Shown piece by piece: positions 1,376-6,510 of a DNA stretch of 25,976 nt. Each line of letters starts with the position of its first letter. Position 1 is the stretch's first letter. The stretch lies in UHGV virus genome UHGV-1612078, one strand, 5' to 3'. Both the position numbers and the translations under genes were made by a program. A model generated the notes under the pieces. The model saw nothing but the letters and a program-made list of their open reading frames with translations. It was not told the origin of the DNA and searched no databases. The DNA comes from a virus.

Positions 1376-1939
1376 ATGAAAACCTATGCCGAATTTTTAA
1401 CCGAAGCAGCAAAATTACCATCTGAAGCAGATCTTACTAAAGTATTCTTCCAATTGGACCCAAAAGACCGCGGCGATTTTCTTAAGTGGAAAGCTAAAGC
1501 TATTGAAATGTACAACATCGATAATAGTTCTTTTACAATGAGTCAAGAAAATAAATTCAATAAAGCATTTTTCAAAATTTCTAAGAAATTGGCATCTGGC
1601 GCTCAGGTTCCTAAATCTGTGTTAGCTACTCCTGAACGCGCACCTGTTAAAATTTCTAAGAATATGTTCGACACTAAAAAATACGTTAATGCTTTGAATA
1701 AAGCTCTTGATGCATTGGATGATGCAAAGAAGGCAGCCCGCGATCTTCAAGACGTGTACACCGATTTTGACCGCAAAACTAAAGGTTCTATTTCAAATAG
1801 CGAACGCAATAGTGTAAGTGTTTATTCTGATAGCCTTGATGTTCTTGGCGATGCGTATACTGAAATTAAAAATCGTATTAACACTGCATCTAAGCTAAAA
1901 GCTGCTGCAGAAGCTATAATAAGTAAACTAGGTAAATAA
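1376..1939 (+). CDS. internal-protein-like packaged protein with N-terminal capsid-targeting sequence
   Basis: N-terminus MKTYAEFLTEAA matches the T4 internal-protein capsid-targeting/prohead-protease leader MKTYQEFI(A/T)E. Lys/Ala-rich body. Terminator immediately downstream. Confidence 0.65.
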   Translation: MKTYAEFLTEAAKLPSEADLTKVFFQLDPKDRGDFLKWKAKAIEMYNIDNSSFTMSQENKFNKAFFKISKKLASGAQVPKSVLATPERAPVKISKNMFDTKKYVNALNKALDALDDAKKAARDLQDVYTDFDRKTKGSISNSERNSVSVYSDSLDVLGDAYTEIKNRINTASKLKAAAEAIISKLGK

Positions 1940-1947
1940 TTTTAAAT

Positions 1948-1973
1948 CCCTATCTAAATGATAGGGCTTTTTG
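1948..1973 (+). terminator. rho-independent terminator
   Basis: Hairpin ccctatc-taaat-gataggg followed by cttttt. Confidence 0.6.
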
Positions 1974-2095
1974 GTATCTAGGCCTTTCTGGACCTCTCTA
2001 GGCATCATTTAGTTTATACCCTTTATAATATATTATCCTATCCTTTAATTGCCCATCCCTGCCCTAGAATTCCCTAAAAATTTTTTCACAAAACT

Positions 2096-2125
2096 GTTTA
2101 CATCTCTGTTCTTCCATGGTACTAT
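2096..2125 (+). promoter_or_regulatory. T4-type early promoter
   Basis: -35 GTTTAC at 2096-2101, 18-bp spacer, TGn-TACTAT. Same promoter and leader recur at 16925 and 19060. Confidence 0.5.
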
Positions 2126-2168
2126 ACAACTATCAACTACTGATACAGAAAACAACTTGGAGAATGAA

Positions 2169-2432
2169 ATGGATAATTACGGCGAACTGTTCAACTTCTT
2201 TATGAAATGCGTTTCAGAAGATTTCGGTCGTACAGTGAATGATATTAAAGTTATCGGTCCTGATCATCCGATGTTTGAAACTTACGCAGTAATGGGTAAT
2301 GAAGACGGTCAGTGGTATACTGTAAAAGTTGTGATTAATATGTTCACAGCAGAAGGTTATGTTAAACTGTCTTCTAAAGTTTACCATGATAACGACGAAA
2401 TCGCAGAAGAATATTTCAATAATATGAAATAA
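2169..2432 (+). CDS. hypothetical small protein (87 aa)
   Basis: ATG 2169 preceded by SD ggag. The upstream part of the track ORF 2049..2432 is translated promoter/leader (GTIQLST artifact). Confidence 0.55.
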   Translation: MDNYGELFNFFMKCVSEDFGRTVNDIKVIGPDHPMFETYAVMGNEDGQWYTVKVVINMFTAEGYVKLSSKVYHDNDEIAEEYFNNMK

Positions 2433-2533
2433 GTTTACGCAGGCTCATGATTGAGATATTATGAGCCTATAATTTGACGATAGAGTATTATACTCCTACG
2501 GATTTTAAATCTCAATTAACCTAAGGAAATACT

Positions 2534-3127
2534 ATGAACACACTGAAGAAAATTGTTGAGTTTATTCGCACTAAACTTGGTTCTGCTATGGCTAAAAATC
2601 TATCTGTCGAAGAACAGTATACTGCTGCAGCAGCAAAACTACTTGATAAAATTAAAGATCTAAAAACTGCTTCTGTTAAATCTATTAACGAAGAAAAACG
2701 TATTCGTGAACTTGTTATCGAAAAGAATCGACAGGCCGAATCAAAAGAGCGTGAAATTCGTAAACTTCTTTCCGAAGGCCAAGATGTAACAATGCATGCT
2801 AAACTCGGTTTACTATATCGTCGAACAGCTGAGCAGTTGACTACTAAGGCTGACGGTTATGCTGAAATGCGAATTGAAATCGCCAAGAAAGTAGTTGAGT
2901 TAGATGATGCTCGTCAAGAACTTGCGGTTAAATTGGAATATATCCGTGAAACTCGTGCAGCAAATGCCCTTGGAATTAGTACTGCTGATGATGTAGTTGA
3001 AATTGCAGCACTGACTAAGGTTGATATTGAAGATACCCTTACTCGAGTTGAAACCTTTAACGGTAATATTTCTGGGGTTGAAACTACCTCTGCCGATGTT
3101 CAGGAATACATTAATTCTCTGAAATAA
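2534..3127 (+). CDS. coiled-coil protein, possible PspA/IM30-like
   Basis: SD aagga then ATG. 197-aa helical, charge-rich sequence whose residue pattern resembles the PspA/Vipp1 helical core (e.g. [16 protein letters not shown] against recalled PspA LSETRARQQAL). Judged by eye only. Confidence 0.55.
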
Positions 3128-3129
3128 TG

Positions 3130-3152
3130 ATAAGGGGCTTCGGCCCCTTATA
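3130..3152 (+). terminator. stem-loop, possible terminator or stabiliser
   Basis: aaggggc-TTCG-gcccctt hairpin with UUCG tetraloop. The downstream T-run is weak. Confidence 0.4.
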
Positions 3153-4488: not shown

Positions 4489-4973
4489 TTTTAAAAACTC
4501 GCTGGTATGATTTAGATGATGGGGACGATGGCATTTCAGTTGATAGAGTTGACTGGAATGGTTGTTCCGAAGATATGAAAAATTTGTTGATTAGGGAGTT
4601 TAGAATGGGATATCAAGCAGCTAAGCCATCTACTATAACAGACGATAAATTCGTGTGTATTCAAAACGGTCGTGCTAAGTTAACGAACGCTGAATGGTTT
4701 ACGGATAAGAATATGCTTCTGTGGTATATCATTAGTCTTCCTGTGTCATCATTCGTATTTTACTTCTTTGGAAAAAATCCAATGGACAGAATAGGAGATT
4801 GGGTTCTTTGTACTATATTTGTTAATATTTTGACAGCAGCAATATTATCTGGGATATGGTGTGTGTTCATTGAAATGCCATGGCGTTTACGCAGACAACA
4901 AAAGATTTTTGATGAAAAGAAATATACTCAAAATTTAAATAACTTTATCACTGAATGCAGGAAATTAAAATGA
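4485..4973 (+). CDS. small membrane protein, paralog 3
   Basis: N-terminal soluble region then hydrophobic segments. C-terminal [14 protein letters not shown] overlap with the preceding gene. Confidence 0.6.
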   Translation: MILKTRWYDLDDGDDGISVDRVDWNGCSEDMKNLLIREFRMGYQAAKPSTITDDKFVCIQNGRAKLTNAEWFTDKNMLLWYIISLPVSSFVFYFFGKNPMDRIGDWVLCTIFVNILTAAILSGIWCVFIEMPWRLRRQQKIFDEKKYTQNLNNFITECRKLK

Positions 4974-5410
4974 AAACATTATCAGCTGGTATTATCTTTA
5001 TGACAGAAGATAAAGATTTATTTATGGGTCGGGTTACTGGTTCTCGTAAGCCTGGAATGATGGCACATCGTTGGGATATTCCAAAGGGCCGTGTAGAAAA
5101 TTCTGATTTAAGCGCATTAGATGCAGCACGAAGAGAATGCTTAGAAGAGACTGGTTTTGGCAATTATAATCCAGACCTTCTAGAAGACCTAGGTGTATTT
5201 AAATATTCTAGTAATAAAGACCTACAGTTGTTTTATTATACGATTCCAGTAGAGCATGAGATGTTTAGAAATTGCTGTTGCGAGTCTTATTTTGAAAATA
5301 AAGATGGTGTTATGATTCCAGAGATGGACGCTTTTGCTCTTATTCCTCGTACTCAGTGGCAATATGTGATGGGTCCTTCACTTTACCGAATAATGAACAA
5401 CCTCTTTTAA
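4970..5410 (+). CDS. nudE: Nudix hydrolase NudE (T4 e.1-like)
   Basis: Nudix box [23 protein letters not shown]. Lies immediately upstream of e as in T4. ATG 4970 with SD agga is preferred over ATG 4955. Confidence 0.85.
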
Positions 5411-5413
5411 TTT

Positions 5414-5434
5414 TATAAATACCTTCTATAAATA
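5414..5434 (+). promoter_or_regulatory. two tandem T4 late promoters (TATAAATA) upstream of e
   Basis: TATAAATA at 5414-5421 and again at 5427-5434, just before the e SD (taggagg). Confidence 0.6.
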
Positions 5435-5447
5435 CTTAGGAGGTATT

Positions 5448-5942
5448 ATGAATATATTTGAAATGCTACGTATAGATGAAGGTCTTAGACTTAAAATCTA
5501 TAAAGACACAGAAGGCTATTATACTATTGGCATTGGTCATTTGCTTACCAAAAGTCCATCGCTTAGTGTTGCTAAATCTGAATTAGATAAAGCTATTGGA
5601 CGTAATTGCAATGGCATAATTACCAAAGACGAGGCTGAAAAACTCTTTAATCAGGATGTTGATGCTGCTGTTCGCGGAATTCTGAGAAATGCTAAATTAA
5701 AACCGGTTTATGATTCTCTTGATGCGGTTCGTCGTTGTGCATTGATTAATATGGTCTTCCAAATGGGAGAAACTGGCGTAGCAGGATTTACTAACTCTTT
5801 ACGTATGCTTCAACAAAAACGCTGGGATGAAGCAGCAGTTAACTTAGCTAAAAGTAGATGGTATAATCAAACACCTAATCGCGCAAAACGAGTTATCGCT
5901 ACGTTTAGAACTGGAACTTGGGACGCGTATAAAAATCTATAA
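5448..5942 (+). CDS. e: endolysin (T4 lysozyme, gene e)
   Basis: 164-aa protein matching my recollection of T4 lysozyme ([33 protein letters not shown]...[10 protein letters not shown]) with only a few substitutions. Confidence 0.95.
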
Positions 5943-5946
5943 AGTT

Positions 5947-5976
5947 GTTTACTTTCTCCTAGAATTGTGATAGTAT
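5947..5976 (+). promoter_or_regulatory. T4-type early promoter
   Basis: GTTTAC at 5947-5952 and a downstream tgtgaTAGTAT -10-like element. Confidence 0.4.
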
Positions 5977-6036
5977 ATTCACAGTTACTTGAAGAGCCAA
6001 ATTATTAATTAAAATATTTACATTTAAAGGATACAC

Positions 6037-6510
6037 ATGAAAACATATCAAGAATTTATTACTGAAGCAGCTATTAATTCTCAAATTATTGCTGAATCTT
6101 TTACTGATCTTTTGAAATTTAAAAAAGGACAGAAAATCACTGCTGTACTGGATGATGGTACAGAAGTTGAGATGGATGTACAAGGATATAATTATGCAGT
6201 AGATGGAAAACTGTATAATAAATCTCATGCTAAATTTGATTCATTTGACGACTTTGTTAATACAGTTGAAGATGAAAAAACTCGTCGATCCATTGCAACA
6301 GGTGATGCTAAGGTTCTTATGGCACATAGCCATGAACGCATTCGCGCTAAACAGAATAAAATGGGTGAAGATAATTTCGCATTAGTTGGTTATCAATCTG
6401 GTAAACAAACTTATGGCTATCAACGTACTGCTACCATGTATAATAAAAATGGTAAAATTGCCTTTGTAAATAGTAAAGGTTCTATTCAGTACGTTAAATC
6501 GTTCAAATAA
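6037..6510 (+). CDS. internal protein (IPIII/IPII-like) with capsid-targeting sequence
   Basis: N-terminus MKTYQEFITEAA is the T4 internal-protein leader. Position directly after e matches ipIII in T4 synteny. Confidence 0.75.
   Translation: MKTYQEFITEAAINSQIIAESFTDLLKFKKGQKITAVLDDGTEVEMDVQGYNYAVDGKLYNKSHAKFDSFDDFVNTVEDEKTRRSIATGDAKVLMAHSHERIRAKQNKMGEDNFALVGYQSGKQTYGYQRTATMYNKNGKIAFVNSKGSIQYVKSFK

Follow-up and report, generated by a model that had tools for sequence, protein, structure and literature searches.

The viral genome UHGV-1612078 was analysed over a stretch of 25,976 nucleotides (nt; hereafter the window), which carries on its + strand two genes for proteins that begin with the capsid-targeting sequence (CTS) of T4 internal head proteins. 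It is likely that both genes, at positions 1376..1939 and 6037..6510, encode proteins destined for the interior of the phage head, and that the product of the first, 187 amino acids (aa) in length, is injected into the host cell, probably as an anti-defence protein. The 157-aa product of the second is already known as Ip4; what is new is that the 187-aa gene is one branch of an unnamed CTS family, phrog_2280, at a third internal-protein (ip) locus.

Capsid-targeting leaders of the two proteins

A first-pass annotation, made from the letters of the sequence, had proposed a T4 capsid-targeting leader at the start of both open reading frames (ORFs), and this was borne out. The 187-aa ORF starts with MKTYAEFLTEAAKLP / MKTYAEFLTEAA and the 157-aa ORF with MKTYQEFITEAAINS / MKTYQEFITEAA; in the T4 record the N-termini of IPIII and IPII read MKTYQEFIAEA and that of IPI reads MKTFKEFTS...ITEA. 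Mutagenesis of IPIII showed that positions 4 and 7 control targeting and positions 8 and 10 control processing, with the prohead protease gp21 cleaving after L/I-x-E (PMC9026906). Tyr4, Phe7, Leu or Ile at position 8 and Glu10 followed by Ala are all present in both window proteins, which thus have the aromatic fourth residue and the Phe7 of a CTS. The gp21-type motif at residues 8–10 is LTE/A in the 187-aa protein and ITE/A in Ip4 (the slash marks the predicted cleavage point). Across the six reading frames of the window, these two ORFs alone fitted a leader pattern, whether strict (MKTY.EF[LI].E) or loose (M..[FY]..F[LI].E[AGS]), and 0 of 200 mononucleotide shuffles of the window matched either pattern.

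LTE is the sole [LI]xE site of the 187-aa protein, and the rest of the chain should therefore survive gp21; Ip4 has a second such site, IAE20/S. Cleavage after Glu10 would give the 187-aa protein the predicted mature N-terminus AAKLPSEADLTK.

A putative late-promoter cassette at a proposed third internal-protein locus

The classical ip loci (57B-ipI-tRNA.4 and e-ipIII-ipII-denV/vs.8) include Ip4 but exclude the 187-aa gene, which is found between the rnaC terminator and e.8. It had been described as lying away from the canonical T4 internal-protein positions and close to tRNA genes, and it does so, with a cluster of five tRNA genes a short distance upstream (Table 1). The interval between the tRNA/stable-RNA genes and e.8 is, by gene order, a third ip locus; position at an ip locus is a habit of these genes rather than part of their mechanism.

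The gene occupies a self-contained, monocistronic cassette (Table 1), both junctions of which end in GGGCTTTTT. Terminators on both sides imply that the cassette needs a promoter of its own. Its putative late-promoter box, AATAAATA, has A at −13, which is the commonest variant of T4 late promoters (9 of 50 sites; PMC2988020). The heptamer ATAAATA occurs five times on the + strand of the window, two of these being the late-promoter boxes of gene e, and the chance of a late-promoter-type box within a 60-nt stretch is approximately 1–4%. An early or middle promoter was considered and rejected, as a sigma-70 scan of the + strand reported nothing promoter-like from the upstream terminator to the ATG. 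Late-only expression of a protein that acts at the start of infection makes sense only if the protein is delivered ready-made, and it is thus consistent with packaging.

The arrangement recalls the promoter-early stem-loop (PeSL) cassettes of T4-like phages, which likewise have short conserved regulatory hairpins as boundaries and occur in hyperplastic regions (PMC4122927), and the 187-aa cassette is similarly inserted exactly at a terminator with matching junction ends. PeSL elements, however, combine a stem-loop with an early (or middle) sigma-70-type promoter, whereas here a terminator is combined with the late box AATAAATA; upstream of Ip4, by contrast, lie the early promoter and stem-loop known from T4 ipIII.

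Distribution and selection of the 187-aa gene

A tblastn search with the 187-aa protein retrieved 165 phage records at a minimum identity of 85%, and the product is annotated as hypothetical in all among the matches listed. The RB14 record names Ip4 and Ip5, yet it labels the 187-aa gene ncORF136c; the accessory-gene library of Silas et al. lists Ip4, Ip7 and Ip9, and the 187-aa sequence was not found in it. The RB14 annotation and the contents of this library together suggest that the 187-aa protein is not one of Ip5–Ip10. Pairwise ratios of nonsynonymous to synonymous substitution (dN/dS) were 0.05–0.15 among the window, RB14 and Kelasse copies, and the gene is, on this sequence comparison, a real one under purifying selection.

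No gene fills the slot in T4, T2 and PST; there is a single gene in RB14, two tandem paralogues are found in Kelasse, and RB69 and OE5505 have frameshifted copies, in agreement with an earlier description of the region as hypervariable. Such patchy occurrence fits a dispensable arms-race gene, and judging from these genomes the 187-aa gene is non-essential and patchy among close relatives. In RB69 (locus L008, 3501–4063) a 1-nt deletion at nt 368 splits the gene into ORF149c and ORF148c, while in OE5505 (locus L001, 2700–3247 and 3373–3935) both phrog_2280 paralogues are frameshifted. These copies may be true pseudogenes; in OE5505 the frameshifts may alternatively be errors of sequencing.

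The phrog_2280 family

The 187-aa protein matches the phrog_2280 profile over its full length (E-value 2e-53), as do a 157-aa paralogue from Kelasse (1.2e-60) and the homologues from P0013 (2.4e-36) and CIP9 (8e-20). The 157-aa paralogue (MKSYTQFLNEA...) is found in 512 phage records and, in Kelasse and fPS-90, immediately precedes the 187-aa gene in a tandem arrangement; it too is annotated as hypothetical in all among the matches listed. In Kelasse (locus L002, 2833–3306) a perfect TATAAATA box is situated 44 nt upstream of the paralogue, and the rnaC-type terminator is repeated downstream of it.

More distant homologues, with 22–30% identity, are present in other genera of the Tevenvirinae. 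The 12 lineages compared were from Tequatrovirus (two paralogue types), Mosigvirus (two), Dhakavirus (two), Jiaodavirus, Kanagawavirus, Kagamiyamavirus, an Erwinia phage, a Klebsiella phage and a metagenomic contig, which were tallied as at least seven named genera of the subfamily. All 12 have an N-terminus of the pattern M-x-x-[YF]-x-[EDQ]-[FI]-[LI]-x-E-[AST], and in 11 of them a [TAG]ATAAATA box is found 36–46 nt upstream of the ATG (a perfect TATAAATA in six of the 11). A scan of a viral contig collection detected only three further near-identical loci and the corresponding scan with the P0013 homologue none; a word-indexed search with the 187-aa protein gave near-identical proteins only; and a HMMER search against 1.84 billion representatives returned one distant homologue, together with a repeat protein that was judged spurious.

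In most lineages a second [LIV]-x-E/A motif is found 5–9 residues past the first (..INEAGERM, ..ITEAGER, ..LTEASVRM; loci L002, L005, L006, L016, L018, L019 and L021), which suggests a longer, IPI-like propeptide in these members. The 187-aa type of the window has LPSEA at this place.

If the leader were a relic or a coincidence, the 187-aa protein would simply be a late cytoplasmic protein, neither packaged nor cleaved. The position of the gene outside the classical ip loci and the uniform annotation as hypothetical among the listed matches of the 165-record search are compatible with this explanation, as is the fact that packaging is a prediction from sequence. It is nevertheless very improbable. 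The leader is the best-conserved part of phrog_2280, with a cross-subfamily identity of 56% against 28% for the body, and the experimentally defined CTS determinants are kept in all 12 lineages; ten CTS residues are, moreover, sufficient to package foreign cargo, such as green fluorescent protein (GFP) and nucleases (PMC9026906). Nor does the leader have the appearance of a recent recombinant fragment. It shares 28 of 36 nt with that of Ip4, but three of the ten identical residues differ in codon. Synonymous differences from the Ip4 and IPIII leaders, together with unrelated upstream DNA, indicate that it has been kept by selection at the peptide level and is not recently copied DNA.

Predicted properties of the 187-aa protein

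The predicted mature product (177 residues) has a calculated mass of 19.6 kDa, an isoelectric point (pI) of 9.5, 32 Lys + Arg and 23 Asp + Glu, and is thereby nearly equal to mature IPIII (IPIII*; 20.4 kDa, pI 9.65, 33 Lys + Arg, 23 Asp + Glu). The internal proteins of T4 range from 8 to 20 kDa with pI values of 9.0–9.65; like them, both the 187-aa protein and Ip4 (16.5 kDa, pI 9.1 when mature) are small and basic.

An AlphaFold model built on a 10-sequence alignment (mean predicted local distance difference test score, pLDDT, 67) predicts a small helical N-terminal domain (residues 17–73), a disordered linker (77–97) and a long helical hairpin (100–185). The copy in Shigella phage CT01 (locus L007, 3001–3489) has lost 25 residues in frame between two KISK repeats, and with them much of the predicted linker. 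Searches of Pfam, NCBIfam and PADLOC with the 187-aa protein gave sub-threshold noise only, and Foldseek against BFVD returned family members only. Ferritin and coiled-coil matches from a Foldseek search of the PDB were discarded as generic helical similarity (E-value > 0.3, template-modelling score ~0.2).

The first-pass description of the body as divergent also held. Profile comparison with IPIII, Ip4 and IPII aligned the leader only, extending marginally further for IPII: hhalign covered 15 columns against IPIII and 40 columns, at 50% probability, against IPII. In these comparisons no homology of the mature domain to either protein was detected, apart from this marginal extension. For IPI, no IP-named region was found among the tblastn matches listed, and no direct comparison with the 187-aa protein was made.

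Among characterised proteins, T4 IPIII, an inhibitor of ECOR17 GmrS1/GmrSD2, offers a close parallel. The two have the same leader determinants (MKTYQEFIAE/A against MKTYAEFLTE/A), near-equal mature size and charge, a single gp21 site and dispensability in common. They differ in that similarity by hhalign ends at residue 15, in locus (e-denV for ipIII, tRNA/rnaC-e.8 for the 187-aa gene) and in expression, ipIII having an early promoter and stem-loop and the 187-aa gene a late-only promoter cassette. With Ip4 of T2, RB14, RB32 and PST, the 187-aa protein has only the 11-residue leader in common.

The resemblance to IPIII* raises a structural alternative, namely that the 187-aa protein is packaged mainly as a structural part of the head, to balance DNA charge or to help assembly (the role first suggested for IPIII), in replacement of IPII and IPIII, and inhibits no defence. 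The window lacks both ipII and ipIII; in IPIII mutants heads assemble more slowly and bursts are smaller, and lysines of internal proteins touch the DNA (PMC9026906; PMC3012670). This alternative is unlikely. T2 is without ipII, ipIII and phrog_2280 genes, which shows that no such component is required, and PST, with both ipIII and ipIV, carries no member of phrog_2280; a structural role is further weakened by the frameshifts in RB69 and OE5505, and IPIII itself inhibits a GmrSD system. Structural and anti-defence roles are in any case compatible with each other.

Proposed function of the 187-aa protein

The preferred explanation remains injection of the 187-aa protein as a probable anti-defence factor. 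The steps of the proposed mechanism have their basis in established T4 biology, while the sequence provides the gene, its leader, the cassette, the conservation and the distribution. The protein would be made late, during prohead assembly, and its leader would dock to the scaffolding core by way of Tyr4 and Phe7. Cleavage by gp21 after Leu8-Thr9-Glu10 would leave the basic, predicted all-helical mature protein of 177 residues in the head with the DNA, and both would enter the next host together. There the protein would most likely neutralise a first-response defence, perhaps a GmrSD-type modification-dependent nuclease of an unmatched subtype.

The functional model for this last step is T4 IPI*, which is CTS-targeted, processed by gp21 and injected, and which blocks GmrS/GmrD of E. 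coli CT596, a nuclease specific for DNA with glucosylated hydroxymethylcytosine (PMC3012670). IPI* is a protein of 76 residues with compact beta sheets flanked by helices and a 19-residue propeptide, whereas for the 187-aa protein an all-helical structure is predicted, in which a disordered linker joins two modules. The earlier mention of IPI as a known restriction inhibitor was correct but outdated, as Ip1, Ip2 and Ip3 of T4 are each reported to inhibit a different GmrSD type IV nuclease, while five more GmrSD systems active on T-even phages found no inhibitor among ip1–10 (PMC12373910). The targets of Ip1–Ip3 and these five systems make an anti-restriction role the best guess. The assignment of a target, drawn by analogy, is the weakest step of the mechanism.

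The injected protein could also act on another defence or on a host take-over function, in the manner of Alt, and not on a type IV nuclease. Ip4–Ip10 gave no reproducible inhibition across 15 GmrSD groups (PMC12373910), and CTS cargo may on this evidence be functionally diverse. The predicted helical-hairpin architecture is unlike any known Ip fold. In a metagenomic T4-like contig (Logan SRR28624380; locus L006, 2092–2526), a CTS-like leader, MITFKQFLNES, is fused to an ART-PolyVal domain (Pfam E-value 1.9e-11) next to a phrog_2280 homologue, from which it follows that cargo at this locus can be of another kind. The fusion protein is a candidate packaged and injected ADP-ribosyltransferase, resembling T4 Alt, which is itself a packaged ADP-ribosyltransferase, processed by gp21 and injected. 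For the 187-aa protein a target other than a type IV nuclease is rather unlikely: no enzymatic domain or motif was detected in it with Pfam, NCBIfam or PADLOC, an ADP-ribosyltransferase domain among them (Pfam), and all three internal proteins with known targets hit nucleases of the GmrSD family.

Several points weigh against an injected anti-defence protein. Virion presence, cleavage and injection are each deduced from the sequence, and the sole proteomic study found for a carrier phage (UFV13) covered four gel bands. The literature search returned no match for the locus tags, no virion proteome or genetic study covering the 187-aa protein and no virion proteome of a Tequatrovirus in which internal proteins are mentioned; virion mass spectrometry is absent from the fPS-90 and Sfk20 papers. 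The gene has no early promoter, unlike classical ip genes, and its AATAAATA box is a one-mismatch variant from which late transcription is predicted. The body has no homologue of known function in Pfam, NCBIfam, PADLOC, PDB sequence or Foldseek searches, and its AlphaFold model is only moderate. Some frameshifts in the family may be sequencing errors, and the GmrSD analogy may fail to generalise, given the results for Ip4–Ip10. On balance, the interpretation put forward in the first-pass annotation is supported, with the term "injected anti-defence effector" standing for what is inferred by analogy.

Extended to the whole family, the same reasoning would make phrog_2280 an overlooked third class of T-even internal proteins, containing the missing inhibitors of orphan GmrSD or other first-response systems. 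This is offered tentatively, as a possibility that is open to considerable doubt. Its members would reside at the tRNA/rnaC-e.8 locus in late-only cassettes with terminators on both sides, frequently as diverging paralogues in tandem, and would extend over several hundred Tevenvirinae genomes (165, 512 and 351 records, overlapping, for three query types).

Ip4 and its recombination joint

The gene at 6037..6510 had been called internal-protein-like. Its leader justifies the comparison, but "like" understates the case: its product is 99.4% identical to ipIV of T2, PST and Kha5h and to Ip4 of RB32 and RB14. It matches Pfam DUF7412 over its full length (E-value 4.8e-95, aligned 1–157 of 158) and, among the PHROG families, phrog_3155, "internal virion protein". 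By sequence identity and position it is the already named Ip4/ipIV, located at the canonical ipIII slot downstream of e. T4 has no Ip4, and the e-Ip4-vs.8 order is common to the window, T2 and RB14 (window positions 5943–6603 compared with T4).

Homology to T4 ends at the CTS codons of Ip4 and resumes before vs.8, which identifies the leader as a recombination joint (Table 1); leader-based recombination has long been proposed for the shuffling of ip genes (PMC4122927). Late transcripts from the TATAAATA boxes upstream of e could read into Ip4. The accessory-gene library of Silas et al. includes Ip4 and flags it "CTS" (PMC12373910). A single-sequence AlphaFold model of Ip4 was too poor for use (pLDDT 48.5).

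Genomic context

The first 7 kb of the window are 93–97% identical to hundreds of Tequatrovirus genomes, and its source is, by sequence, a T2/RB14-type Tequatrovirus. It is colinear with RB14 through the tRNAs, an extra ORF, the stable RNAs, RB14ncORF136c, e.8, e.6 to e.2, nudE, e, Ip4 and vs.8. In comparison with T4, the window lacks e.7 (near 2471–2518), ipIII, ipII and denV (pyrimidine-dimer glycosylase), and gains the ORF at 600..950, the 187-aa gene and Ip4.

Table 1. Features located in the UHGV-1612078 window and the basis of each assignment.
Feature	Coordinates	Strand	Basis
tRNA cluster: Met, Tyr, Asn, His, Arg (five genes)	62..581	+	ARAGORN; Rfam tRNA matches
Homologue of T4 stable RNAs rnaD and rnaC (species 2 and 1 RNAs) with terminator	950..1288	+	91% nucleotide identity to T4; T4 annotation
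Intrinsic terminator ending the tRNA/stable-RNA unit; left junction of cassette after ..GGGGCTTTTT	1258..1285	+	Terminator scan; T4 junction comparison
Cassette of 687 bp: late-promoter box, ribosome-binding site, 187-aa gene, own terminator	1286..1972	+	blastn: T4 homology ends at 1288 and resumes at 1948; slot empty in T2, PST
Late-promoter box AATAAATA, A at −13; putative late promoter	1330..1337	+	Sequence
Shine-Dalgarno sequence AAGGA, 6 nt before ATG of 187-aa gene	1365..1369	+	Sequence
187-aa CTS-bearing protein, RB14ncORF136c, phrog_2280; predicted unnamed internal head protein	1376..1939	+	Leader, family and cassette evidence
CTS propeptide MKTYAEFLTE, codons 1–10 of 187-aa gene; predicted gp21 cleavage after Glu10	1376..1405	+	IPIII determinants (PMC9026906)
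Intrinsic terminator of cassette; right junction between ..AGGGCTTTTT and GGTATCTA	1948..1972	+	Terminator scan; T4 junction comparison
Two perfect TATAAATA late-promoter boxes upstream of e	5414..5434	+	Sequence
Early-type promoter GTTTAC..TAGTAT and stem-loop, near-identical to region upstream of T4 ipIII	5947..5976	+	Side-by-side upstream sequences; 94% block with T4
Ip4/ipIV internal head protein, 157 aa	6037..6510	+	99.4% identity to named homologues; DUF7412; phrog_3155
Ip4 CTS segment, last 32 nt of T4 ipIII homology; recombination joint	6037..6068	+	T4 homology 2518..6068, resuming at 6510 upstream of vs.8

Within the tRNA cluster, tRNA-His (426–501) lies between tRNA-Asn and tRNA-Arg; it is present in OE5505 and Kelasse and absent from this place in RB14, T2 and T4. 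The ORF at 600–950 encodes 116 aa assigned to phrog_3355 (function unknown) and is situated between tRNA-Arg and rnaD. T4 is without it, and ORFs of matching length are found at this position in T2 (T2_136) and in RB69 (ORF150c), the latter in DNA approximately 88% identical to the window. Rfam contains no family for the rnaC/rnaD-like region at 950–1288. The block from tRNA-Arg to e.8 (window 506–2467) is 88% identical between the window and Mosigvirus RB69, whereas the adjoining e.6-e.4 region is only 69% identical, which suggests a recent exchange of this block between the two genera.

Implications for T-even head cargo

Injected internal proteins are the first phage molecules that the host meets, and the host range of T4-like phages, a group in wide use for phage therapy, depends in part on them. 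Targets are known for only three internal proteins, and several type IV systems active on T-even phages have no known inhibitor. Head cargo was catalogued from T4, T2 and PST, all of which are without phrog_2280, and the catalogue is therefore incomplete. The family provides concrete, unscreened candidates for the orphan type IV systems, and the succession of terminator, late promoter, CTS gene and terminator offers a simple signature by which further injected proteins may be found in genomes.

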